Notes: a model not told the origin generated them from the sequence alone. Positions 3,520 to 41,324 are shown, counted from the first letter of the stretch. The stretch: DNA of 45,014 bases from Parcubacteria group bacterium Gr01-1014_13 (GCA_007376295.1 VMGB01000003.1:137106-182119); one strand, 5' to 3'. Program-made: numbers and translations.

Positions 3520-4050
3520 CTACTTACCATTGTGGATTAAATGTACAAATCGCCCTCTCACCGTACTGGTAAACATGGGTAGAGAAATAATTTCTTGATA
3601 CAACAACATCATCAATGTATCAAACAACTTTTCGGCCGTTTCCTTTTTACAAGAAATTACCCCAGAGGTTCTCTCTACAAAATAGTCTTTTGGCAATGAC
3701 TGATGATTTTCAACCAGGACTTCATCATAATTAGACAAAGTAAGTTGCAGTGGAGGACCTTCTTCCTCTTGGAATACCAGCCCTTCAAGATTAGAGGAAA
3801 ACTCCGCAATCATGGCAGTGCAACGGATCTCCCTAGGTGTTGCCCTAGCCAAACTTGGCGCATGCCGAATCTCATGCCGAAACGGCTCGATCCCATCAGT
3901 CGCATCAAGCTCTGCGGGAATAGATGTGGTATCACGGCTAAGAAAATTAGCTAACGATTTACCGAGCACCAACCACTCTTCATGTATTAGCGCAAACCAG
4001 TTCTTTATACCCGGATCTTCGTCATCATTCTCGCTTTTCGATTCACTCAC
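3520..4050 (-). CDS. hypothetical protein (176 aa), second gene of an orphan two-gene operon
   Basis: GTG start at 4048-4050 overlaps the upstream stop (GTGA). AAAGGAGA SD lies 7 nt upstream. Acidic N-terminus. I recognised no domain; a lone R-x4-H (RHEIRH) is present. Confidence 0.6.
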   Translation of the reverse strand: MSESKSENDDEDPGIKNWFALIHEEWLVLGKSLANFLSRDTTSIPAELDATDGIEPFRHEIRHAPSLARATPREIRCTAMIAEFSSNLEGLVFQEEEGPPLQLTLSNYDEVLVENHQSLPKDYFVERTSGVISCKKETAEKLFDTLMMLLYQEIISLPMFTSTVRGRFVHLIHNGK

Positions 4051-5006
4051 GGTGTATCTCCTTTGGTTGTTTCAGTCTTCTGTTTACAACGAACAAGAAT
4101 GTCGTCGTGTTGCCAAAAACTAGTAATTGTTAGAGAGCCGAGGTGCCAAGAACCATTATCTAGTCGAAAAATACGAGGGATTATCTGGGCACCACTACTG
4201 CTTAACAAGCGCGTGCCTGGAAACAGGATGGATTTATTCCAATGTTCGTTGGGGATTTCCGCCGAACGAACAATGATATATTTCGCATCAGCCAGACCAA
4301 GGTTTGCCTTCATATCAAGCGCACGCTGGCGCATTGTCTTACCCCAGACAGGACTTTGTCCCCTCTCTAAATAGGAGACATATTCCAAATCCTTCATCTC
4401 AAACTTAGACGGTTCGACATTGTCCATAATCTCATACCCATCTTGTACGAGTTCAGATAATGGCAACGCTTTGATTACTCCCACTGCGAAGACAGCCACA
4501 TGAGGAAAGCCACACTCTTCCAACGGATGAAGTATGCCACAGACCAAATTCCGATTTTCCATGGCCAACTGTAAACGATTCCTACCCCTACCACCCATAC
4601 CAAAAGTATCAGTGTTAACGATCAAACCATTGAATGGATTAACCCGTGTCGCATTTAAATGCGCCGCGGCCATGCCGGCAATATGTTCGGCTGAACCGAA
4701 CGAAACCCGGTACGACTCTGGTAATCCGCAATCGGTCTTAAATACAGCTAACAATGCTTTCTGTTCGGCCACATTCTTGTTAAGACTATCGAAAAGTGGC
4801 ACTGGAAGCCACGAAACAAGGCAATGTTCCTTTATTGAAGGATCACAAACTTCAGCGTGAATCTTCATCTGGTCAGCCACGCCGACCCCATGATGGCTTT
4901 TACGAAAACCGTCCATGATCTGCAAAGCTTCTGGCTTTGATTTCTTGGCATACTCCATTATCCAAATAACGGCTTCTTTATCAGAAAGAAGATTATATTC
5001 GGCCAC
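4047..5006 (-). CDS. hypothetical protein (319 aa), first gene of an orphan two-gene operon
   Basis: GTG start at 5004-5006 is preceded by GGGAGGTG. A TTGACA promoter lies at about 5062-5067 on the minus strand. GC is higher than in neighbouring genes. No recognisable motif (no Walker A, no HxH). Confidence 0.6.
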   Translation of the reverse strand: MAEYNLLSDKEAVIWIMEYAKKSKPEALQIMDGFRKSHHGVGVADQMKIHAEVCDPSIKEHCLVSWLPVPLFDSLNKNVAEQKALLAVFKTDCGLPESYRVSFGSAEHIAGMAAAHLNATRVNPFNGLIVNTDTFGMGGRGRNRLQLAMENRNLVCGILHPLEECGFPHVAVFAVGVIKALPLSELVQDGYEIMDNVEPSKFEMKDLEYVSYLERGQSPVWGKTMRQRALDMKANLGLADAKYIIVRSAEIPNEHWNKSILFPGTRLLSSSGAQIIPRIFRLDNGSWHLGSLTITSFWQHDDILVRCKQKTETTKGDTP

Positions 5007-5071
5007 TGTTCACCTCCCGTTAAGTTGTAAAAGAATGTTGTAATAGTACAACAAAAACCGCTTTTGTCAAT

Positions 5072-7629: not shown

Positions 7630-7968
7630 ATGTTCAAGCCGCAAAAATTCTACGCTGCACTTATAGTTTCCAGAAAACCGATTAACCTCGGCGATTTGCC
7701 CCAAGACCACTCTGTCACACACCTTGTAAATGAAGAATTCGAACTCAAATCTAATGGCAGAGGCGGTTGGATGACAGAGAAATCAGTGCCACACCACTAC
7801 GATAGTTACAAGGGCAGCAAAGAGCAGCTTCGCGGTTCAGGGCAGTCTATTTCGCTCGCCATTGTCGATTGGTTCGCTTCCCTTTGTTCTTACGTTCCCT
7901 ACCTCTCCCTCGAACGCAAGAGGAAGCTGGAGCAAGAGAAGGAAGATAAAGTCCCAACAGACGAATAG
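7630..7968 (+). CDS. hypothetical protein (112 aa)
   Basis: AAGGAGAA SD 6 nt upstream of the ATG. GC is elevated. It converges on uvrB, and its terminator-like hairpin plus T8 overlaps the uvrB 3' end. No recognisable domain. Confidence 0.5.
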   Translation: MFKPQKFYAALIVSRKPINLGDLPQDHSVTHLVNEEFELKSNGRGGWMTEKSVPHHYDSYKGSKEQLRGSGQSISLAIVDWFASLCSYVPYLSLERKRKLEQEKEDKVPTDE

Positions 7969-8004: not shown

Positions 8005-9879
8005 TTAGGACCGATGCTTTTTTTTAATGAGCTTACCATCTTCGGCTTCAGGTTCTGGAATATCCAAGAAATCTTCGATCGCTTTATGCGTTGTCTGTGG
8101 CGTAATGCCATGCTTCTTGTTATATGCCAACTGTTTTTCTCTGCGTCTCTCCACTTCGGCCATGGCTCGTTTCATCGAGCCAGTAATCGTATCGGCATAC
8201 AATACAACTTTACCGGCCACATTACGCGCCGCGCGGCCCATAGTCTGCATCAGCGATTCTTCGCTGCGTAAAAATCCTTCTCTATCAGCATCCATAATGG
8301 CTACAAATGTAACTTCGGGCAGATCCAAACCTTCACGCAACAAATTCACACCGATCAACACATTAAACTTTCCGCGCCGAAAATCCGTAAGAATTTCTGT
8401 CCTCTGCAAAGTCTTTATATCCGAATGCAAATAATTTACGGTATAATTTTTTCTCAGTAAAAATTCATTTAATTCTTCAGCCATTTTTTTAGTCAGCACA
8501 TTCACAATCGCTCTCTCACCTTTTTTTACAATCTGGTCAATCTCTTTCATCAAATCATCTACCTGGCCTTTATTGGTTTTTTTATCAAACACTGGTCGTA
8601 CTTCTATCGGCGGATCAATTAGACCGGTAGGACGAATAACCTGTTCGGCAATTTGTGAAGATTTTTTTATCTCAAAATCACCGGGCGTGGCTGAAGTGAA
8701 AATAACTTGGCCAACTCTTTTCTCAAATTCATCAAAGCGTAATGGACGGTTGTCCAAGGCCGAAGGCAGTCTCCAGCCATACTGTGCCAAAACTTGTTTG
8801 CGGCTTTGGTCACCGGCATACATGCCGCGCACCTGCGGCAAACCAATATGCGATTCGTCCATGATAGTAAGAAAATCCGGCTTACCATCTTTCCAAGGAA
8901 AATATGCCAGCAAAGTATCTGGTGCTTCGCCAGCTAATTTACCGGCCAAATGACGGGAGTAATTTTCAATACCATGACAAAAACCCAAAGTCTTCAACAT
9001 TTCCATATCATATTTAGTGCGGCGTTCCAGTCTTTCCTCTTCCAAATACAATTCTTTTTTCTTAAAATAATCCAAACGTTCTTTTAGTTCTTTTTTTATT
9101 TCCTTCAGCGCTTCTTTCATTTGCGGTTCGGAAGAAATAAAATGCTTGACTGGAAAAATTACAGCTTCGTTTAATTTTTCTTTTACTGTTCGGGTTAAAA
9201 CATTCACAATATTAATTTCACTAATTTTTTGGTCAACAATTTCTATACGGTAAGCAATATTTTCCGAAGCCGGCATTATTTCAAACACATCGCCGCGCGC
9301 GCGGAATTTACCTCGCTCCAATGCTCCGGGCGTACGGGTAAATTGAATTTTGACCAGTTGGCGCATCAAATCTCCACGCACAATCGGCTGACCCACACTT
9401 AAATTTATCGCCGATTCAAAATAATTGCTCGGCACACCCAAATTGTAAATACAAGAAACCGAAGCCACAATAATTACATCTTTACGCGACATCAAAGCAC
9501 TGGTGGCCTGGTGACGCAAGCGATCTATTTCTTGATTGATCATCGCTTCCTTCTCTATGTATGTATCGCTGGTCGGCATGTAGGCTTCCGGCTGATAGTA
9601 GTCATAGTAGGAGACAAAATAATTTACCGAATTTTCCGGAAAGAAATTTTTGTATTCACGGTACAACTGCGCAGCCAAAGCTTTATTTGGCGCCATTACC
9701 AAAACCGACTTATTAAATTGGGTAATAACATTGGCCATGGAAAAAGTTTTACCCGATCCGGTAACGCCAAGTAAAGTCTGGTAACGATTGCCTTTTTTTA
9801 GGCCGTTTACCAGCTTTTCTATAGCCTGGGGTTGATCCCCGGCTGGTTTGAATTTTGATTTTAGTTTAAATAAAGACAT
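8005..9879 (-). CDS. uvrB: excinuclease ABC subunit B lacking the C-terminal UVR domain
   Basis: FKPAGDQPQAIEKLV, Walker A GVTGSGKTF, DESH box (MDESHIG), and helicase motifs through GRAARN. 624 aa, ending about 20 aa after GITPQT. Confidence 0.95.
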   Translation of the reverse strand: MSLFKLKSKFKPAGDQPQAIEKLVNGLKKGNRYQTLLGVTGSGKTFSMANVITQFNKSVLVMAPNKALAAQLYREYKNFFPENSVNYFVSYYDYYQPEAYMPTSDTYIEKEAMINQEIDRLRHQATSALMSRKDVIIVASVSCIYNLGVPSNYFESAINLSVGQPIVRGDLMRQLVKIQFTRTPGALERGKFRARGDVFEIMPASENIAYRIEIVDQKISEINIVNVLTRTVKEKLNEAVIFPVKHFISSEPQMKEALKEIKKELKERLDYFKKKELYLEEERLERRTKYDMEMLKTLGFCHGIENYSRHLAGKLAGEAPDTLLAYFPWKDGKPDFLTIMDESHIGLPQVRGMYAGDQSRKQVLAQYGWRLPSALDNRPLRFDEFEKRVGQVIFTSATPGDFEIKKSSQIAEQVIRPTGLIDPPIEVRPVFDKKTNKGQVDDLMKEIDQIVKKGERAIVNVLTKKMAEELNEFLLRKNYTVNYLHSDIKTLQRTEILTDFRRGKFNVLIGVNLLREGLDLPEVTFVAIMDADREGFLRSEESLMQTMGRAARNVAGKVVLYADTITGSMKRAMAEVERRREKQLAYNKKHGITPQTTHKAIEDFLDIPEPEAEDGKLIKKKHRS

Positions 9880-9944
9880 AAATAAATACGCAAAATCCCC
9901 GGTTTCCCGGGTTGTATAGGGGGTATGATGACTGATTTAGGTGG

Positions 9945-9969
9945 GTTTGTCAATGTTACATTGACAAAC
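9945..9969. promoter_or_regulatory. 25-bp perfect palindrome GTTTGTCAATG-tta-CATTGACAAAC (back-to-back TTGACA -35 boxes, or an operator)
   Basis: 11-bp arms that are perfectly complementary. The right arm gives TTGACA-N17-TATTTT for the plus-strand gene at 10032. The left arm points a TTGACA toward uvrB. Confidence 0.6.
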
Positions 9970-10031
9970 CGGTCCAAGCCTGCTATTTTACACCCAACAT
10001 CAAGCCTGCGGGTTTGAGAAAGGCAAAATAA

Positions 10032-10433
10032 ATGCTCACTGCAATCCTGGTAGCTGTAGGTATTATCGCCTACTTGAATATCGGTTACTGGTGGGGAAAT
10101 ATTTCTTGGAGAATTTGGCGCACCCGAAAACGGTCTTTGACTGCTATGCTCTGTTTTCCCATAAATTATAGCTTGGACAAGATTGGAGATGAAGAATGGA
10201 AACCAAACCCAGATTATCCGCTTACTCAGGTTATTGCCCGTGAATTCCAGCCGTTGATAGCTGTTTTTAATAGCCAATCTTTTTATGCCATAACGATGAC
10301 ATTTGTCTGGCCATTAAAGTTGGTTTGGAACGTTCCCGTCCTTATTGGTTTTATTGGCTGGAAAGTAATCAAAACAACCCCTGGAATAATTATATACCCT
10401 GCCTCTAAATTATTGCCCAAAGAAAAAATATAG
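10032..10433 (+). CDS. two-TM membrane protein, paralog family member 1 (133 aa)
   Basis: N-terminal helix and the motifs GIIAYLNIGYWWG, LCFP and WPLKLVWN align with the gene at 11590. Promoter, 5'UTR and terminator are shared with that gene. Confidence 0.6.
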   Translation: MLTAILVAVGIIAYLNIGYWWGNISWRIWRTRKRSLTAMLCFPINYSLDKIGDEEWKPNPDYPLTQVIAREFQPLIAVFNSQSFYAITMTFVWPLKLVWNVPVLIGFIGWKVIKTTPGIIIYPASKLLPKEKI

Positions 10434-10448
10434 GCCACTTATAATCCG

Positions 10449-10475
10449 CCGACGCAACAATGCGCCGGTTTTTTT
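10449..10475 (+). terminator. intrinsic terminator (CCGaCGCA-acaa-TGCGcCGG plus T7)
   Basis: Hairpin followed by TTTTTTT. The same stem sequence is reused at 12172-12201. Confidence 0.65.
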
Positions 10476-10544
10476 ATATAACTTTTTCAGAACAAAAAAA
10501 TCCTGCCGAGTAATACTCTGGCAGGAACAAACCTCCAAAACTTA

Positions 10545-11453
10545 TTATTGATATTTATACATCAGCAACTCACCTAGTTTCCGCAGGCGTGCTGCCCCGG
10601 TCTTGGTGCTACCACCCTCCAAATCACGTTCCATGAATGAGGGAAGTTTATCGCCATGATACCTTGCCGAAGCAATACCCCAGGCAATGGCTGCTACTGA
10701 ATCTGTATCGCCACCCCACTTGATAACTTGTCTCAAAATTCCCATCAAGGAATTTTCTTGAGCCAGGACAGTCACCACTGCCTGTACAGTCGCAATTGCA
10801 ACTGAAGTTCCTGGTGAGGCCTTTACAGGCCCGCAAGGCCATGGCCGAAAAATAGCGTCTCCAAAGTACCTCACATCTTCTTCTGGCAAATATCGTTGGC
10901 AGAACCTGCCCAAACCCGGGAGAACAGTATTTTCATAAAGAGCAAAATGGCTCATTAGCGCCACCGCGCGGGCGCTGAATCGCCCTTCAGGTGTGTCGTG
11001 TGTAATAGAAGCTTGAAGTGTAGCCACTTCCAATACCTTCCCCACTGTCGGCAAAACCCCAATCGGCACTGCGCGCATAGCCGCACCATTCTTTACTGAG
11101 GTTGGATCGATAAGCGCGAGTAGTTCCTTGCCGCTACGCACGAGTTCCAGAACAGTCTGAAATCCCTTGGAGTACCCTTTACGACGTCCGCCAGTCTTAA
11201 ACTCGGCAACATATGCGTCGGCAAATGCTAGCTTAGTAAAGAACCCGGGTTGTTGAATTAATACCAGGGCATTGGCCACCGACATTTCCGTGTCATCGGT
11301 ATATGAACCAGCGGGAAGACCGTGGGTCGGATGAGCCAGATACCCTTGGAACTCTAAACACTTACCCTCTAATGCATTGTTGTACTCTACTGCTACGGCA
11401 TAAGCATCGGCCATAGCGATATATAGCAACATGTTCGGATTACTGAAACGCAT
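10545..11453 (-). CDS. ADP-ribosylglycohydrolase (ARH/DraG) family protein
   Basis: SYTDDTEMS and GGDTDSVAAIAWGIASA motifs typical of the binuclear-metal ARH fold, plus AMRAVPIG. AGGAG SD 6 nt upstream. 302 aa. Confidence 0.85.
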   Translation of the reverse strand: MRFSNPNMLLYIAMADAYAVAVEYNNALEGKCLEFQGYLAHPTHGLPAGSYTDDTEMSVANALVLIQQPGFFTKLAFADAYVAEFKTGGRRKGYSKGFQTVLELVRSGKELLALIDPTSVKNGAAMRAVPIGVLPTVGKVLEVATLQASITHDTPEGRFSARAVALMSHFALYENTVLPGLGRFCQRYLPEEDVRYFGDAIFRPWPCGPVKASPGTSVAIATVQAVVTVLAQENSLMGILRQVIKWGGDTDSVAAIAWGIASARYHGDKLPSFMERDLEGGSTKTGAARLRKLGELLMYKYQ

Positions 11454-11506
11454 GAACTGCTCCTTTGGTTGTTATTTCTATCTGCACCCTACCTTGATTT
11501 AGAGCT

Positions 11507-11531
11507 GTTTGTCAATGGATTATTGACAAAC
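11507..11531. promoter_or_regulatory. 25-bp palindrome GTTTGTCAAT-ggatt-ATTGACAAAC, second copy of the element at 9945
   Basis: 10-bp perfect arms. The right arm gives TTGACA-N17-TATTTT for the gene at 11590. The left arm faces the divergent ARH gene. Flanking TGATTTAG is also conserved with copy 1. Confidence 0.6.
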
Positions 11532-11589
11532 TAGCCTAAACCTGGTATTTTAAGGCCAACTTCGGACCAATCACGGTTCGAGAAAGGCA

Positions 11590-12153
11590 ATGAACATGCT
11601 CGCACTTTACATCGCTCTGGGTATCATCGTTTACCTGAATACCGGATATTGGGGGGGCCATCTCTCTCGAAAAATTTGGGGTAAAGAAAAAAGATCTTTT
11701 GGAGGATTCCTCTGTTTCCCAGCATCTTTTTGTAAAAACTGTATTGGAAACAAGCGTGCGTGGAACACCTCGTCGGGAAACAATTTGATGTTGGTAACTG
11801 AAGAGGATTACGAAAAAATACTGGCGGTAGCATGGCCAATCAAGCTGGTACTGAACTTGATCGTAATTATCTCTATTGGCACATATTGTACCGTCAAAAC
11901 CGGCTTCACCCTCGTTACTAACCCGTTTGCCTTCTTCCCCAAGAGGAAACCAAAAGAACTCCTAGCCGCACCTCTCCCGGCCGCACCGCCAGCCGAACCA
12001 ACTCTAATCCAGTCCGACTCCTACTCGGAATCAAAGCATGACGAGTACCAACGCATCTTGACGCGGCATAACCAAGACGCAGTCCGTCTAAAAGAACTGG
12101 AATCTAAATTCCAAAAAGAAAACAAGGTTATACATCTACCAAAACGGATGTAG
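11590..12153 (+). CDS. two-TM membrane protein, paralog family member 2, with a Pro/Ala linker and a charged helical tail
   Basis: Aligns with the gene at 10032 (GIIVYLNTGYWGG, LCFP, WPIKLVLN). The ATG at 11596 aligns with the start of paralog 1 and may be the true start. Contains a G7 run at 11651-11657. Confidence 0.6.
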   Translation: MNMLALYIALGIIVYLNTGYWGGHLSRKIWGKEKRSFGGFLCFPASFCKNCIGNKRAWNTSSGNNLMLVTEEDYEKILAVAWPIKLVLNLIVIISIGTYCTVKTGFTLVTNPFAFFPKRKPKELLAAPLPAAPPAEPTLIQSDSYSESKHDEYQRILTRHNQDAVRLKELESKFQKENKVIHLPKRM

Positions 12154-12171
12154 AATCAAACTAACCAACTC

Positions 12172-12201
12172 TCCGACGCAACCCCAATGCGCCGGTTTTT
12201 T
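12172..12201 (+). terminator. intrinsic terminator (CCGaCGCA-accccaa-TGCGcCGG plus T7)
   Basis: Same stem as the terminator at 10449-10475, followed by TTTTTTT. Confidence 0.65.
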
Positions 12202-12316
12202 TATCACATTTTCCCCTTGCATGATTCCCAATAAAATGATAAAATATTGGTATATTTCAAGCAGTATTTCACCCCTAATTTAGGCGGTGATTTAATTAAA
12301 AAATGACTATTAAATT

Positions 12317-12931
12317 ATGCATATAAGCTGGCTAGGGCAGACCTGCATCAAACTGCAAACAAAAAATTTAGATAAAGATGTTACAATAATACTTGACGCC
12401 TACAAACCAAAAACCGGAGAATTTCCTCGTAGCTTTAGTCCGGACGTAGCCCTATTTTCATCTGGTTCAGAAAACGCAGCCACACTTTCCCAAGATCCTT
12501 TTGTGGTAGATTCTTTGGGTGAAGTAGAAGTAAAAAACGTAATGATCTATGCCATACCAGGCTCCGAAGGCAGTGTGATTTACAAACTAAACGGTGAAAG
12601 TTTAAATCTGGTTCATTTGGGCAGATTAAAAAAACCACTTGATAATTCCGAAATGGAAAAAATTCTTTCTCCGGATGTTTTATTTATTCCTGTTGGCGGC
12701 GGCGCAAATTACCTTAGCGCTAAAGATGCAGCGGCAATGGCTACAGCGCTCGAACCGCGGGTAATAATCCCAATCGGATATAATTGCGACACCGATCCTG
12801 ATGCCGCTCCAGTCTCCGCCTTTGTAAAAGAACTGGGCTTAAAACCAGAAGCCACAGAGAAAAAAGTTATTATCAAGAAAAAAGATTTACCACAAGAAGA
12901 AACAAAATTAATTGTTTTAGAAAAAGAATAA
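12317..12931 (+). CDS. MBL-fold (Lactamase_B_3 / UPF0173-like) protein with a degenerate metal-binding motif
   Basis: MHISWLGQTCIKLQT start and overall layout resemble the small MBL-fold hydrolases. The position where HxHxDH is expected reads ALFSSGSEN. TTGCAT-N17-TAAAAT promoter at about 12216-12244. Confidence 0.55.
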   Translation: MHISWLGQTCIKLQTKNLDKDVTIILDAYKPKTGEFPRSFSPDVALFSSGSENAATLSQDPFVVDSLGEVEVKNVMIYAIPGSEGSVIYKLNGESLNLVHLGRLKKPLDNSEMEKILSPDVLFIPVGGGANYLSAKDAAAMATALEPRVIIPIGYNCDTDPDAAPVSAFVKELGLKPEATEKKVIIKKKDLPQEETKLIVLEKE

Positions 12932-12940
12932 GTTGGTTTT

Positions 12941-13348
12941 ATGCCTAGGAGGAAAAAAATCGTAATCAAAGAAAATGAAACTTTACGCTTGCCTCCAGAA
13001 AATCAAAAAGCAAAAATGTGGCTTTGGATTGGGGTAAGCGCTATTAGCGCCATCATTCTAGTGATGTGGGGTTGGGCTACCAGCATCAGCCTTTCCTCGT
13101 TTAGTTGGGCAAAGACTCCGGAAAAAAAATTAATTGAAAACAGCAAAAATGATTGGAACGAACTTTTTAACAACGAACAAGAAAAGATAAAAAACGAACA
13201 ACTGAAATTACAGGTCAAACATATATTAACTACACTTATTGCCGAGGCAAACTCCAGCACTGCTAGCACCTCGACAACTGGCACAGCGACTACAACAACA
13301 ATAACAATAACAAATAGTTCGACTCCTTCAACAAGTTCTCACCACTAA
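12941..13348 (+). CDS. single-pass membrane protein with a Ser/Thr-rich tail
   Basis: Basic N-terminus, TM helix (MWLWIGVSAISAIILVMWGW), and a low-complexity STASTSTTGTATTTTITITN tail. Confidence 0.5.
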   Translation: MPRRKKIVIKENETLRLPPENQKAKMWLWIGVSAISAIILVMWGWATSISLSSFSWAKTPEKKLIENSKNDWNELFNNEQEKIKNEQLKLQVKHILTTLIAEANSSTASTSTTGTATTTTITITNSSTPSTSSHH

Positions 13349-13358
13349 TGAATTACAT

Positions 13359-15824
13359 ATGCAAGAAAAAATAGAATTACCTGGTCAAGAAATTGGTTTA
13401 ATCACGCCAGCATCGCTCGTAGATGAAATGCAAAAATCATATCTGGAATATGCGATGAGCGTAATTGTTTCTCGTGCTTTGCCAGATGTCCGCGATGGCT
13501 TGAAGCCGGTACATCGCCGCGTGCTTTATGCGATGTGGAATATCGGTCTGCGCCACACTGCCAAATTTCGTAAATCTGCCCACGTAATCGGTGAGGTGAT
13601 GGCTAAATACCATCCGCACGGCGATGCTTCCATCTATGATGCCATGGTACGTATGGCCCAAGACTTTTCCATGCGCTACCCACTAGTACATGGCCAGGGA
13701 AACTTTGGTTCCATGGATGGCGACAATGCCGCGGCCATGCGTTATACCGAAGCCAAACTTACCGCCGTAGCTGAAGAGATGTTGTTTGATATTGAAAAAG
13801 ATACCGTTAATTTTATACCCAACTATGATGGTTCCCACGAAGAACCGACCGTTTTACCCTCTAAGCTACCAAACCTGCTCCTAAACGGTACTATGGGCAT
13901 TGCTGTGGGTATGGCGACCTCTATTCCTCCTCACAACCTGTCCGAGCTCTGTGATGGCCTAGCCAAGCTTATAGCTGAACCAGATGCCACCGTCGAAGAC
14001 CTGGCCAACATAATCAAAGGCCCAGACTTCCCTACCGGCGGTATTATCTACAACAAAAGAGATATCCTTACAGCCTACTCCACCGGTAAAGGCGGCATTG
14101 TGATGCGCGCTAAAGCGGAAATCCAAGAAGGTAAATCCGATCAATTCAAAATTGTTATTACCGAAGTTCCCTACAGCACCAATAAAGCCACCTTGGTGGA
14201 AAAAATTGCCGATCTGGTACAAGAGAAAAAAATCGAAGGCATCAGAGACTTACGCGACGAATCCAACAAAGATGGCGTCCGTGTGGTTGTTGATCTCAAA
14301 AAAGATGCTTATCCAAAAAAAGTTCTAAACAAACTATTCCAGATGACGGAACTGCAAACCACTTTCCATGTAAACATGTTGGCATTGGTAGACGGCATTC
14401 AACCGCGAGTGCTGACGATAAAAAATGTTTTGGAAGAATTTATCAAACACCGCCAAGTAATTATTAAACGCCGCACTGAATTTGATTTGAATAAAGCCAA
14501 GGACCGCGCCCATATTTTAGAGGGCTTGAGCATGGCGTTAGATAAAATTGATTTAATTATCAAAACTATTCGTGCTTCCAAAGACAAAGAGGAAGCCAAA
14601 GAAAATTTAATATCTAAATTTAAATTCACTGACCGACAAGCAGTCGCTATTTTAGAAATGAAACTGCAACAACTGGCTAACTTGGAACGACAGAAAATAG
14701 AGGATGAATTAAAAGAGAAAATGGCTTTAATAAAAGAATTGGAATCTATTTTGGCTTCTAAAACAAAGATAATGAAAATTATTGCTGATGAAACATTGGC
14801 TATAAAAGAAAAATACGGCCAAGACAGACGTACCCAAATTGTGGCTGGCGGTATAAAAGAATTTACTACTGAAGATTTAATTCCAAACGAAGCTACTATT
14901 ATCATGGTAACTTCTGATGGGTATATCAAACGCTTGCCTCCGGATACTTTCCACCAGCAATCACGTGGTGGGAAAGGTGTTATCGGTACTGCCACCAGAG
15001 AAGAAGAAAGTGTAGAAAATCTGGTAGCCACCAACACTCACGATAATATATTATTCTTCACCAATCGTGGCCGTGTCTTCCAGCTAATGGCCTATGATAT
15101 TCCCCAAGCCAGCCGCACTGCCAAAGGCCAGGCGATGATAAACTTTTTGCAACTTGCCCCGAATGAAAAAGTCACGGCGCTTTTGGGAATGAATGATCTA
15201 AGCAAAGTAAAATATCTAGTCATGACTACCACTCGAGGCAATATCAAAAAAACCGCTTTGGAAGATTTCGCCAACGTACGCCGCAGCGGGTTAATTGCGA
15301 TAAAATTAAAGCCTGATGATAATTTGGAATGGGTAAAACCGAGTGATGGGAGTGACGAAATTATGATTGCCACCAAACAAGGCCAAGCAATTCGCTTCAA
15401 AGAAAAAGATGTTCGTGAAATGGGACGCACAGCCAGTGGTGTGCGCGGTATGCGCCTAAAAAACGGAGACGAAGTGATTGGTATGGATATTGTGGATCCA
15501 AAAAATAAAAGCCTAGCATTCCTCACTGTTGGCGAAAACGGTGTCGGCAAACGCACCGAACTGGATGAATATAAAGTGCAAGGACGAGGCGGTAGCGGTA
15601 TCAAAACTGCCGAAATCACTGCCAAAACCGGCAACCTTACTTTTGCCAAAGTGGTAGATGCGGTAGAAGCAAAAGAAAAAGACCTGCTTATTATGTCCGC
15701 CAAAGGCCAGGTGATCCGCCTGCCGTTTGGATCAATTAACTCTTCCGGCCGAGCTACTCAAGGTGTACGCCTGATGAGATTTAAAGAAGAAGGTGATAAG
15801 GTTTCGAGTGTGACATTGATGTAA
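13359..15824 (+). CDS. gyrA: DNA gyrase subunit A
   Basis: [42 protein letters not shown] (catalytic Tyr), and C-terminal beta-pinwheel repeats. 821 aa. Confidence 0.97.
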
Positions 15825-15872: not shown

Positions 15873-15897
15873 AGCTAATAATAAGGTACAGGGGGGG

Positions 15898-15926
15898 TTG
15901 ACAAACGAACTATTTTATAGTATACT
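15898..15926 (+). promoter_or_regulatory. sigma70-type promoter TTGACA-N17-TATACT for the GC-rich orphan gene
   Basis: Near-consensus boxes in AT-rich DNA, immediately preceded by a G7 run (15891-15897). AGAGGAGAA SD at 15956-15964. Confidence 0.6.
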
Positions 15927-15970
15927 TGTTTATTGCTCTTTTTATCAACCCAAGCTAGAGGAGAACTGCG

Positions 15971-16750
15971 ATGATGACCAAGACCGAATTGCTTTCCCGT
16001 CTCAAGAGGATCCGCCAGAGTGAGTGTCGGACGCGTGGACTGTTCACGCTGATCCAGATGTTCATCCACTACTTCAAGGACGCCAGCGTTCCGGAGTACG
16101 ATGGATTGGGCATCTTCCACTTTCTCCCCAAGCACCTCGCGCGCGCCGTCGAGATCCTGCGGACCAGCAAGGACCTCAAGATCGAGGCATTCCGCCAGGC
16201 GTACTACAACGAGATGCAGCGGGAAGAGGAGATTCCGAGTCTGACCGAAATCGAGTTCGGTGGGGTAGGACGCACTCTCACCTGCCACACACTCAGCACT
16301 GACTTGCCGAAACTTCTGCTCGGCGAGGAGTGCGCCTGGCTCGAGAAGGACATGTACGCCTACTTCACTTCCCAGGACACGATCGTGAAGCAGATGATCG
16401 ACCGCTTCGATCTCGAGGTCTACCAGGGGGGGCTCTGCACCATCATCGACGAGTGCAAGACTCGTGGCATGACTGGCACGTTCGGCAAGACATCGCTTCG
16501 TAGCTACGTCATGGCCGGCCGCGTCATGCTCACGCTCGCGCGTCCGCGCAAGGACTCTGAGGTGGAGCACAGCGTCTCGTTCGTCGGCGAAGACGGCAAG
16601 ACGTCGGAGCCTCGCTTCGGCATCCAGTCGTTCCACGCCAACCTCACAACGACCCTCAGCATGTTCGAGGAGGTGATCAACAACTGGCCCAAGAATAACA
16701 AGGAGCAGAAGAAGATCTACAAAGCCGACAAGGAAGTCGGCATGGGATGA
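15971..16750 (+). CDS. hypothetical protein (259 aa) in a compositionally foreign, GC3-rich gene
   Basis: Codons are overwhelmingly G/C-ending (CTC, AAG, ATC, TTC, GAG, CGC), unlike the flanking genes. Promoter, SD and terminator all fit the plus strand. No domain recognised. Contains a G7 run at 16426-16432. Confidence 0.6.
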   Translation: MMTKTELLSRLKRIRQSECRTRGLFTLIQMFIHYFKDASVPEYDGLGIFHFLPKHLARAVEILRTSKDLKIEAFRQAYYNEMQREEEIPSLTEIEFGGVGRTLTCHTLSTDLPKLLLGEECAWLEKDMYAYFTSQDTIVKQMIDRFDLEVYQGGLCTIIDECKTRGMTGTFGKTSLRSYVMAGRVMLTLARPRKDSEVEHSVSFVGEDGKTSEPRFGIQSFHANLTTTLSMFEEVINNWPKNNKEQKKIYKADKEVGMG

Positions 16751-16801
16751 TCTGACCGCAACTACCGCAAAATGCAGTGGTGGTCGATCTTTCATAAGGC
16801 C

Positions 16802-27071: not shown

Positions 27072-27512
27072 TTATTTAATTTCTCCGCCTGCAGCCTTAA
27101 TTTTTTCGGCAGCACCAGCAGTGCTAGCCACTCCTTCGATAACTAATTTTTTGGTAATATCTCCGGTAGACAAAATTTTAGCAGCTTTTGCTCTAGTGCT
27201 TACTAAATGTTTTTCTTGCAAAGAAGCTAAAGTTACAACTTCACCGTCTTGGAAAGTATTTTCTAAATCTGACAAATACACCTCTGACGGCTTGGTGTTT
27301 AGACTGTTAAAACCGCGCAACTTTGGAGTTGACTGCAATAGTCTTTTAAAACCTCGGCGGCGAGTACCTTGACTTCCGCCTGATCTGGCAGTTTGACCCT
27401 TACCACCTCTGGTGGCAGTAGTACCGTGACCAGACGCATTGCCTCTGCCCAAGATTTTTTTAGCCTTCTTGGATCCTTTAGCCGGATGAATTGTATGTAC
27501 GTGTAAAGACAT
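27072..27512 (-). CDS. rplO: 50S ribosomal protein L15 (uL15)
   Basis: GRGNASGHGTTATRGGKGQTARSG motif and operon position. Confidence 0.93.
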   Translation of the reverse strand: MSLHVHTIHPAKGSKKAKKILGRGNASGHGTTATRGGKGQTARSGGSQGTRRRGFKRLLQSTPKLRGFNSLNTKPSEVYLSDLENTFQDGEVVTLASLQEKHLVSTRAKAAKILSTGDITKKLVIEGVASTAGAAEKIKAAGGEIK

Positions 27513-27516
27513 AATT

Positions 27517-28053
27517 TTATTTTACTTCTGTAACTACAGGTTGTACCTGAGGTTTCTTAACATCAAATTCTCTTTTTCCGCCATTTTTAAACATCTGCAA
27601 AGCATTAAATGTAGCCTTAACGATAGTTACTTTATTTTTTGTTTTACCTAAAATTTTAGAAACCACATTTGGTATTCCGGCTAATTCCAACATGGCGCGG
27701 GTCGCACCGCCGGCGATAATACCAGAACCTTGTGGGGCTGGTTTTAAAAATACAGTAGCTGCTTTGAATTTATAAACTATAGCGTGAGGAATGGTGCCAT
27801 TGATAATCGGTACAGTAATCATGTGTTTCTTGGCCTGATTTACGGCCTTTTCTACACCTAATTGTACATCTTTACCTTTAGCAAGTCCAAAACCAACTCG
27901 GCCCTTGCGATCACCCAAAATAATACAAGCGCGGAAACTCATATGTTTTCCACCCTTAGTTACTCTGGTAACGCGAGCCAAATCCAAAACATACTGATCG
28001 AATTCAGGCTTTTCTCGCGGTTTGTCGCCTCGTCTACCCATTGGTTTACTCAT
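27517..28053 (-). CDS. rpsE: 30S ribosomal protein S5 (uS5)
   Basis: RVTRVTKGGKHMSFRACIILGDRKGRVGFGLAKGKDV. Followed 4 nt later by rplO, so no L30 gene lies between them. Confidence 0.94.
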   Translation of the reverse strand: MSKPMGRRGDKPREKPEFDQYVLDLARVTRVTKGGKHMSFRACIILGDRKGRVGFGLAKGKDVQLGVEKAVNQAKKHMITVPIINGTIPHAIVYKFKAATVFLKPAPQGSGIIAGGATRAMLELAGIPNVVSKILGKTKNKVTIVKATFNALQMFKNGGKREFDVKKPQVQPVVTEVK

Positions 28054-35275: not shown

Positions 35276-35874
35276 TTATACTGCTACAACTAGCTCTGGT
35301 ACTGCCTCTACTTCTGGAGCAGAATTTTCAACAACGTTTGTTTTTAATTTCAATTCTCCCTCACCGCTAATTAACAACAAACCATTTCGGCCACCTGGAA
35401 CTGCGCCTTTAATATAGATTTCATTTACTTCCGGGTGAACTTCAATAATTTCCAAATTCTTTACAGTAATTCTTTCGCCACCCATGCGGCCACCCATTTT
35501 TTGGCCTTTGAAAACTCTTTGTACAAACCTTTACCTTTTGATTCACCTACTACAACAACTTTGTCGCCAGTAGAGAATGTTTCTACAGTAATGGTATCGC
35601 CGCGTTTTACTTGGGCATCAGTTTCAATTTTAAAATCTTTCAAATTTCGAACCTTGTCCAGATCTTTTAAATGGCCGACTTGAGGCTGGGCCAATCGAGT
35701 TTCCTTTGTTTCGTCAAACCCAATCTGAACGGCTTTTAGGCCATTCTTTTTAACATTTTCTCTGACTTCTACAATTTGGCAAGGACCAGCTTGAACTTTC
35801 GTTACTGGCACCACTACCCCGTTAGGTAGAAACACCTGAGTCATGCCTATTTTTTTACCTAAAATAAATTTCAT
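35276..35874 (-). pseudogene. rplC: 50S ribosomal protein L3 (uL3) gene, interrupted by a frameshift plus loss of about 35 conserved codons
   Basis: The N-terminal ORF (35461-35874) reads MKFILGKKIGMTQVF...GESKGKG and then leaves the frame. The C-terminal ORF (35276-35497) is L3-like; its frame is open from about 35529 and reads RFVQRVFKGQKMGGRMGGERITVKNLEIIEV. The frames differ by 1 nt at about 35521-35530. Confidence 0.8.
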
Positions 35875-41188: not shown

Positions 41189-41324
41189 TGGGACCTCCCG
41201 GTCTTAAAACTTTTGGTTGAAAATCACTTGGGAAAGAGCATTATTCTCAATAAAACCATGCCTTAAAATACCATAAAATAGGGCTTCTGTCAAGCTTGCC
41301 AAACACTCCCCGTAATCTAAACCG

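Follow-up and report, generated by a model that had tools for sequence, protein, structure and literature searches.

Palindromes upstream of two paralogous membrane-protein genes in a Parcubacteria genome are probably back-to-back -35 boxes

A stretch of 45,014 nt from Parcubacteria group bacterium Gr01-1014_13 (GCA_007376295.1, VMGB01000003.1:137106-182119; hereafter, the window) contains two related genes for small membrane proteins, mem1 and mem2, each preceded by a 25-bp palindrome, with a gene for an ADP-ribosylglycohydrolase (ARH) lying between them on the opposite strand. We consider it probable that the two mem genes are old paralogous units residing in a variable slot, that each palindrome consists of two -35 boxes placed back to back, and that the ARH gene is a separate neighbor. 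In this model, each unit would comprise a promoter, a hairpin leader, a ribosome-binding site (RBS), the gene itself, and an intrinsic terminator. The right arm of the palindrome, combined with an extended -10 box (TGnTATTTT), would fire into mem, and the left arm, combined with a weak -10 box, would fire leftward, into uvrB at the first cassette and into ARH at the second. The palindrome would thus be no separate regulatory device, only two copies of an extended -35 element 7 bp apart. Both the transcription start sites and the promoter strengths in this model are ones that we infer from the sequence.

Palindrome 1 (GTTTGTCAATGTTACATTGACAAAC, 9945-9969, both strands) and palindrome 2 (GTTTGTCAATGGATTATTGACAAAC, 11507-11531, both strands) lie where an earlier note, made from the sequence alone, had placed two 25-bp palindromes. 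Each is a perfect 10+10-bp inverted repeat around a 5-bp center (n = 2 in the window) and reads as a pair of back-to-back extended -35 boxes, with 7 bp between the hexamers in palindrome 1. The core pattern TTGTCAAT-N3-7-ATTGACAA matches twice in the window versus 0 times in 100 shuffles, and no additional copies were found in the window with up to 3 mismatches allowed (scanning of the source genome covered these 45 kb). On both strands, the arm of either palindrome is ATTGACAAA, a 9-mer found 7 times in the window, where 1.08 copies are expected. Its three copies outside the palindromes are all unpaired and stand 17 nt (16-17 nt at position 5070) 5′ of good -10 boxes, upstream of a tRNA gene, the operon starting from 5006, and the gene at 35874; the promoter of the tRNA gene (TTGACA-17-TATACT) ends ~7 nt ahead of the mature 5′ end. 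When all TTGACA hexamers of the window are listed, the likely promoters show aTTGACAaa. Because the lone copies and the likely promoters read alike, we take the arm to be the general extended -35 consensus of this lineage (A-TTGACA-AA). A predicted promoter at 41293 (minus strand; TTGACA-17-TGgTATTTTAAGGC) also has an extended -10 box that, together with the next bases, matches the mem2 promoter (TGGTATTTTAAGGCC), suggesting that strong promoters in this genome share a template.

Predicted promoters extend from the palindromes in both directions. Rightward, the consensus scanner called TTGACA, a 17-nt spacer, and the extended -10 box TG-n-TATTTT for both mem1 (9961-9989, plus strand) and mem2 (11523-11551, plus strand), and the mem1-type architecture is common to 10 cassettes. 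Leftward, a predicted uvrB promoter with its leader (9898-9953, minus strand; consensus scanner and comparison with relatives) has a -35 TTGACA at 9953-9948, the 8-mer CTAAATCA at 9940-9933, and a -10 CATCAT at 9930-9925, with a 17-nt spacer. At palindrome 2, the corresponding ARH promoter (11486-11515, minus strand) was read from the sequence: -35 TTGACA at 11515-11510, CTAAATCA at 11502-11495, and -10 TAGGGT at 11491-11486, with an 18-nt spacer. We predict this promoter because its TAnnnT, at 17-18 nt, is kept in five relatives (L001, L004, L006, L009, and L011; L numbers denote related loci). Taking -35 and -10 boxes 16-18 nt apart on each strand, suitably placed before a gene start, as the mark of back-to-back sigma-70 promoters, the scanner found three of the four, the ARH promoter being the one with TAGGGT at 18 nt. 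Transcription would begin ~7 nt past the predicted -10 boxes, near 9996 and 11558 on the plus strand (mem1 and mem2) and near 9918 and 11479 on the minus strand (uvrB and ARH).

For comparison, we assembled about a dozen related loci, whose contents were established by tblastn and by hidden Markov model searches of six-frame translations; a narrow locus scan with a mem alignment contributed three genome loci and three metagenome loci. A script applied to 10 mem cassettes found both arms in all 10, always with 17-18 nt from the right arm to the -10 box. The gap from GTCAA to TTGAC is 7 bp in six of these cassettes and 2, 4, 24, or 26 bp in the remaining four, and the bases between the arms are not conserved, the central 5 bp being variable. 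Since the gap varies while both promoters persist, the arms look like two independent promoters and not like a dimeric operator of fixed spacing.

Several observations weigh against this interpretation. Across ~170 kb (the window and related loci), paired arms occur only upstream of mem cassettes (2 in the window versus 0.11 expected), and the 7-bp gap is kept with four different left neighbors (uvrB, ARH, a noncoding RNA [ncRNA], and an unassigned open reading frame [ORF]). The pair is therefore inherited as part of the mem cassette; the palindrome travels as a unit with mem, as it also would if it were a mem-specific operator. Moreover, the leftward -10 boxes are weak, the consensus scanner did not call the one for ARH (TAGGGT), and a conserved 8-mer in the leftward spacers has no explanation under the promoter model. 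This 8-mer, TGATTTAG, or CTAAATCA on the transcribed strand, precedes both palindromes by 12 nt (copies at 9933-9940 and 11495-11502) and has a fixed place in the spacers of the leftward promoters of uvrB and ARH. It is no rarer in the window than chance allows (3 found versus 2.5 expected), such that its significance rests on fixed position and on conservation in relatives (one copy each in L001, L004, L006, L008, L010, and L011), not on rarity; it is missing from the promoters of the ncRNA and of unassigned ORFs.

These same features are what would recommend the palindrome as the operator of a dimeric repressor or activator that covers both -35 boxes and co-regulates mem with the divergent gene, for instance in a stress or DNA-damage regulon. 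In its favor are the perfection of the inverted repeat, twice in one window, the equal spacing in 6 of 10 cassettes despite four different left neighbors, the confinement of paired arms to mem cassettes in the sampled DNA, the spacer 8-mer in the leftward promoters, and the placement of one copy ahead of uvrB, a classical damage-inducible gene. We nevertheless regard such an operator as unlikely: the arms hold nothing beyond the generic promoter consensus that also occurs at unpaired promoters, the center is unconserved, and the spacing takes other values in cassettes that keep both promoters. Furthermore, only one arm, without a palindrome, is present at the promoter at 5070, whose operon has uvrC as its last gene; a Pfam scan of ORFs adjoining the cassettes brought up no DNA-binding protein; and the literature offered no LexA motif for Patescibacteria with which to match the arms. 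Of the two roles suggested in the earlier note for the palindrome, that of coupled divergent promoters is thus supported, whereas that of an operator for a dimeric regulator is unlikely, given the generic arms, the unconserved center, and the variable spacing. A more specific candidate, an SOS/LexA box at the uvrB palindrome, was dropped for lack of support, the arm being the generic -35 consensus, but was not disproved.

The uvrB gene (8005-9879, minus strand; Pfam UvrB_inter, Helicase_C, and UvrB), whose -35 box the left arm of palindrome 1 would supply, encodes a protein with 95% amino acid identity to its L004 orthologue. Its promoter and leader are identical over ~65 nt between the window (9880-9944) and L004 (5735-5800), despite a synonymous divergence (dS) of ~0.8 in uvrB itself, and the leader contains a 5′ hairpin (CCCGG-GAAA-CCGGG, 9911-9898) whose pairing survives through compensatory changes (CCGA/TCGG) in L006, L008, and L010. 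Judged by this identity, the noncoding stretch is strongly constrained. A search of 9800-12400 against Rfam (E ≤ 1) returned no credible riboswitch or known RNA, only one chance-level match (15.9 bits versus a cutoff of 80 bits). Elsewhere in the uvr cluster, a 112-aa ORF without a family match lies between uvrB and uvrA (7630-7968, plus strand); in L004, which lacks this insertion, uvrB and uvrA are only 3 nt apart (7671 to 7675). The ORF would be a further small accessory insertion and would separate uvrA from the uvrB promoter.

Returning to the cassettes, mem1 (10032-10433, plus strand) encodes a 133-aa protein with two transmembrane (TM) segments, a tail-less form of the family, and mem2 (11590-12153, plus strand) encodes a 187-aa (probably 185-aa) two-TM protein with a proline-rich linker and a C-terminal helix. 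At 36-38% amino acid identity, the two are paralogues, as had been proposed from their sequences. The start of mem2 is probably the ATG at 11596 and not that at 11590, because the RBS spacing (8 nt for 11596 versus 2 nt for 11590) and the N termini of the family match the former. Both genes follow a leader with a predicted hairpin and an RBS: in mem1, a 7-bp hairpin (10000-10017; -11.4 kcal/mol), which sits near the predicted 5′ end, and GAAAGG at 10018-10023; in mem2, an 8-bp hairpin (11561-11582; -12.0 kcal/mol, z = -3.1) and GAAAGG at 11582-11587. The three differences between these hairpins all preserve pairing (A-U to G-C, A-U to G-U, and G-U to A-U), and leader hairpins also occur in relatives, being longer in L008 (z = -3.6) and L010 (z = -5.0). 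Because the uvrB leader has one too, also kept by compensatory changes, 5′-proximal leader hairpins look like a general feature of mRNAs in this lineage, where they could plausibly stabilize the message.

Each cassette ends in an intrinsic terminator with the stem CCGaCGCA/TGCGcCGG followed by T7 (mem1, 10448-10476; mem2, 12173-12202; both plus strand), with folds of -11.7 and -8.1 kcal/mol (z = -2.75 and -2.33), and the homologous terminators of relatives show compensatory stem changes. Aligned with one another, the cassettes share the 5′ order TGATTTAG, palindrome, CCTGnTATTTTA, CCAAC, hairpin, GAGAAAGGCAA and the 3′ element CCGACGCA...TGCGCCGG followed by T7. Alignment and folds thus bear out that the two genes have a promoter, a block of the 5′ untranslated region, and a terminator in common. 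Regulatory DNA is, as had been estimated by eye, at least as conserved as coding DNA: identity between the cassettes is 71% (70/99) in the upstream noncoding region and 80% of aligned positions downstream, versus 51% in the codon-aligned coding region.

This imbalance reflects the protein more than its control signals: the mem protein evolves fast, which makes the signals look better conserved than its coding DNA. Nei-Gojobori estimates of dS and of the ratio of nonsynonymous to synonymous divergence (dN/dS), made mainly between the window and L004, give dN/dS of 0.014 for gyrA (dS 0.73), 0.019 for uvrA (dS 1.01), 0.038 for uvrB (dS 0.80), 0.053 for lactB (dS 0.57), and 0.147 for ARH (dS 0.95). 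For mem, dN in this comparison is 0.58 and dS is saturated; dN/dS for mem1 is 0.60 versus L003 and 0.44 versus L002. Overall, dN/dS is 0.3-0.6 for mem and 0.01-0.07 for the neighbors. By these ratios, the mem protein appears to be under relaxed or diversifying selection, with the promoter, leader, and terminator under ordinary constraint, and ARH appears moderately constrained.

The interval from uvrB to lactB-p135-gyrA is a variable slot. Its conserved right border, comprising a lactB-like hydrolase, a 135-aa protein, and gyrA (12317-15824, plus strand; Pfam), is syntenic in L004, L008, L009, L010, and L012, and the GyrA proteins of relatives are 87-98% identical. Within the slot, the window has mem1, ARH, and mem2; L004/L005 and L006 have ARH and mem; L002 and L011 have mem and ARH; L001 has ARH, a candidate ncRNA, and mem; L003 has a candidate ncRNA and mem; and L009/L012 have an AbiEii toxin gene, ARH, a 167-aa ORF, and mem (additional genes were assigned by Pfam and PADLOC). 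Two loci have no ARH, namely, L008, with an unassigned 140-aa ORF and mem, and L010, with mem and a CAP-domain gene. Terminator and promoter details particular to position 1 or position 2 match the same position in other genomes (for example, the mem2 terminator loop AACCCCA(A/T)TG is common to the position-2 terminator of L009), so the duplication of mem is old. We considered whether recent gene conversion alone could account for the similarity between flanks and rejected this, position-specific cassette details matching the orthologous positions elsewhere.

Some of the other slot genes are of note in themselves. The AbiEii-type toxin gene (type IV toxin-antitoxin; L009:87-764, minus strand) adjoins ARH in one sublineage (L009 and L018/L019), in which the flank past ARH is S1 and FtsH, not uvrB, and in L018 a DUF6922 gene lies beside it. 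The CAP-domain gene (L010:5532-6485, minus strand) encodes a membrane-anchored protein. Two slot ORFs have no family match (L008:5421-5843 and L009:2127-2630, both minus strand), the latter resembling part (residues 191-284) of a window protein whose gene spans 4047-5006.

The candidate structured ncRNA, ~340-380 nt in length, is found in L001 (1119-1500, minus strand) and L003 (24-365, minus strand), flanked by the left promoter arm and the mem palindrome, and is absent from the window. It has a predicted promoter of its own, with TTGACA-17-TAATAT or TAGTAT, and a terminator whose stem has undergone compensatory changes. Identity between the copies is 72%, with long invariant blocks, 5 of 77 predicted pairs are compensatory, and the minimum free energy z score is -3.5 on the minus strand versus -0.9 on the plus strand. 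It contains no conserved ORF, and searches of Rfam and tmRNA, phage, and IMG/VR searches gave no match.

The changing contents of the slot raise the question of whether the -35 palindrome is itself a recombination hotspot, at which units are gained or lost and each event duplicates or deletes one TTTGTCAAT arm. On the uvrB side of L001, L004, L006, and L008, a lone TGATTTAG-N5-TTTGTCAAT half-arm is always kept, even before a terminator, and L001 retains a terminator-like remnant beside it. In L001 and L003, the ncRNA unit lies between direct repeats of (A/G)TTTTGTCAAT, and a CAATG microhomology links the arm to the loop of the mem terminator. Taken together, the half-arm, CTAAATCA, and the TTTTGTCAAT repeats are compatible with arms that serve as recombination breakpoints, without demonstrating it. 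Repeated arms are, however, expected without any special mechanism, because every unit needs its own -35 box. Inserted units are also flanked by half-sites only, never by full sites; the sequences read showed no sign of a recombinase, a transposase, or terminal inverted repeats, although no systematic search was made; and the sample is ~10 loci, several of them on short contigs. We therefore find a hotspot of this kind very improbable.

Related to both alternatives is the view that the paired -35 palindrome travels with mem because it is either the site of a dedicated regulator or a preferred breakpoint, to which we give little credence. If the breakpoint version were true, whole units (mem copies, ARH, the ~360-nt RNA, and toxin-antitoxin genes) would be swapped next to uvrB, and the arrangement would constitute a promoter-embedded hotspot of cassette exchange in the ultrasmall genomes of Patescibacteria.

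In our preferred account, in which ARH is a slot-sharing neighbor of old mem units, the ARH gene (10545-11453, minus strand) encodes a 302-aa member of the ARH/DraG superfamily of ADP-ribosylglycohydrolases. It matches PF03747 at E = 2.6e-33 (116.4 bits versus a gathering cutoff of 26.2, over model positions 3-285 of 287), and its translation contains TDDTEMS and GGDTDS, both of which align with ARH3 motifs, confirming the full-length enzyme with intact motifs that had been described. A predicted intrinsic terminator follows (10494-10526, minus strand; -16.3 kcal/mol, z = -3.67, then a T-run). Scores fall below the cutoffs of both the DraG equivalog TIGR02662 (49.7 bits versus 337) and the Tri1 equivalog NF041672 (29.8 bits versus 490), and structural similarity is only remote, to ARH3 and DraG; there are no nif genes in the window. 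Homologues number 692 at E ≤ 1e-40, and all named ones among the 120 listed belong to Patescibacteria, including Uhrbacteria.

Could ARH and mem form one functional system, with ARH either as antidote to, or immunity factor against, a toxin linked to ADP-ribosylation or as regulator of the membrane proteins, under joint control of the palindrome? ARH adjoins mem in every ARH locus of the close lineage in which the mem-side flank was recovered (the window, L001, L002, L004, L006, L009, and L011), ARH and mem2 diverge from one palindrome, and ARH is less constrained than its housekeeping neighbors (dN/dS 0.15). Yet the two genes also part company. Homologues of ARH at 57-58% identity have no mem within 5-6 kb and keep unrelated neighbors: Pterin_4a, PRPP synthetase, and phosphoribosyltransferases in L007; MOSC, NTPase_I-T, and a phosphoribosyltransferase in L020; and HIT in L021. 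Conversely, mem occurs without ARH in L008 and L010, both complete uvrB-gyrA intervals, and in distant homologues (L014 and L016). The conserved co-occurrence expected of an ADP-ribosyltransferase toxin and an ARH antidote is thus lacking, and no ADP-ribosyltransferase domain was found in the scanned ORFs neighboring ARH. The mem proteins have no match in PADLOC, PHROGs, Pfam, or NCBIfam, and, because dS of ARH matches that of its neighbors, ARH appears to have been inherited vertically in the slot instead of moving with mem. The pairing of ARH with duplicated membrane proteins in one system, as advanced in the earlier note, is not supported by these comparisons, which match two of the grounds for refutation given there (ARH is widespread across Patescibacteria beside unrelated genes, and mem occurs without it), and we hold it to be highly unlikely. 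Adjacency in several close relatives seems to come from both genes residing in the same variable slot, and ARH is probably a separate gene in that slot, with a lineage-wide role unrelated to mem.

The usual form of the mem protein resembles mem2, with an N-terminal helix (YLNxGYWWG), a basic SWKxWxKKxRS stretch, LLCFP, and a variable loop, followed by a second helix (WPxK...N), the proline-rich linker, and the C-terminal helix; mem1 falls within a tail-less subgroup. An index of 5.8 billion proteins contains three close homologues, and an exhaustive profile search of 1.84 billion representatives returned 104 matches at E ≤ 1e-3 and 27 at E ≤ 1e-10, some of the weaker ones spurious. Among the latter, the multistretch matches to P0148 (1,533 aa) and P0201 were discarded as Ig-like repeats and a junk ORF. 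Family size is roughly ≤100 clusters at 50% identity, and none of 42 members matched Pfam; by these counts, mem would be a small, lineage-restricted, and uncharacterized family. Its distant homologues adjoin RNase HII, a LysM-M23 peptidase, or EF-G. An AlphaFold2 model of mem2 is a helical hairpin plus a C-terminal helix (mean pLDDT [predicted local distance difference test] of 83.5), for which a Foldseek search of the PDB gave nothing significant (best E = 3.1, probability 0.08). The top chance-level matches are two-TM pore modules of channels (E of 3-8, probability <0.1), which offer a weak lead only. As a working guess held with low confidence, mem could be an inner-membrane protein that is abundant, perhaps oligomeric, and located at an exposed interface.

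The window as a whole is chromosomal, containing uvrC, uvrA, uvrB, gyrA, relA/spoT, parA, parB, a tRNA gene, and a ribosomal protein cluster. In this cluster, the S5 and L15 genes lie 4 nt apart with no L30 between them (27072-28053), as is known from the candidate phyla radiation; this trait and the naming of the ARH homologues both point to Patescibacteria. Past gyrA, ORFs on both strands overlap at 15875-16795, neither with a Pfam match. A promoter predicted at 15898 (plus strand; TTGACA-17-TATACT) stands 73 nt upstream of the ORF at 15971-16750 (plus strand), and because of it this ORF, and not the longer overlapping one on the minus strand, may be the real gene.

Taken together, the arrangement is real and its mechanism mostly ordinary, and the practical gain is modest; a new ADP-ribosylation system is not supported. 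For an uncultured lineage of Patescibacteria, the extended -35 box aTTGACAaa, the extended -10 box, and the 5′-proximal leader hairpins are aids to annotation, and the palindromes illustrate that a striking symmetry can come from nothing other than two consensus promoters back to back. The uvrB-gyrA interval is a small hotspot of accessory genes, relatives hold a candidate structured RNA without an Rfam family, and the mem family evolves ~10 times faster than its neighbors, as proteins at the host or phage interface often do.

Several known systems share parts of this arrangement. Integron attC cassettes and the pdif modules of Acinetobacter are gene cassettes with short palindromic recombination sites at their ends. 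Like them, the slot gathers small self-contained modules in variable number at one locus near short inverted repeats; unlike them, its repeats would be the -35 boxes of promoters and its modules have their own promoters and terminators, with half-arms only, on the uvrB side, no Xer-type full sites seen at both ends, and no integrase or other recombinase among the scanned ORFs. LexA/SOS operators lie upstream of uvrB, and the palindrome similarly overlaps the predicted uvrB promoter, but its sequence is the generic -35 box, it is missing from the promoter at 5070, and only a half-arm remains at uvrB in L004 and L006. With the ARH/DraG superfamily (DraG, ARH1/ARH3, and Tri1), the window ARH shares the full-length domain and the metal-binding aspartate/threonine motifs; it differs from DraG and Tri1 in having no nitrogenase, ADP-ribosyltransferase, or type VI secretion context, and its relatives in other Patescibacteria lie near nucleotide-metabolism genes.

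The closest comparisons are with divergent promoters. In symmetry-based bidirectional promoters, key elements are symmetric and coincide on opposite strands (bioRxiv 10.1101/2020.01.31.928960; PMC12825309). The palindromes resemble these in that divergent transcription would arise from symmetry of core elements, but their -10 boxes are distinct, and it is the adjacent -35 boxes that are symmetric. Published symmetric promoters reportedly share a pseudosymmetric -10 box and have start sites ~18 bp apart, whereas the two -10 boxes at palindrome 1 (9925-9930, minus strand, and 9984-9989, plus strand) stand ~55 bp apart. Nearer still are ordinary divergent pairs of the sigma-70 type, in which, as here, promoters on opposite strands of one short intergenic region each have their own -35 and -10 boxes; the predicted start sites in the window are ~78 bp apart, and coupling through polymerase competition or supercoiling is possible. 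What sets the window apart from such pairs is that its -35 regions are identical 9- to 10-mers, 7 bp apart, that form a perfect 25-bp palindrome and that the paired unit is inherited with one gene family.

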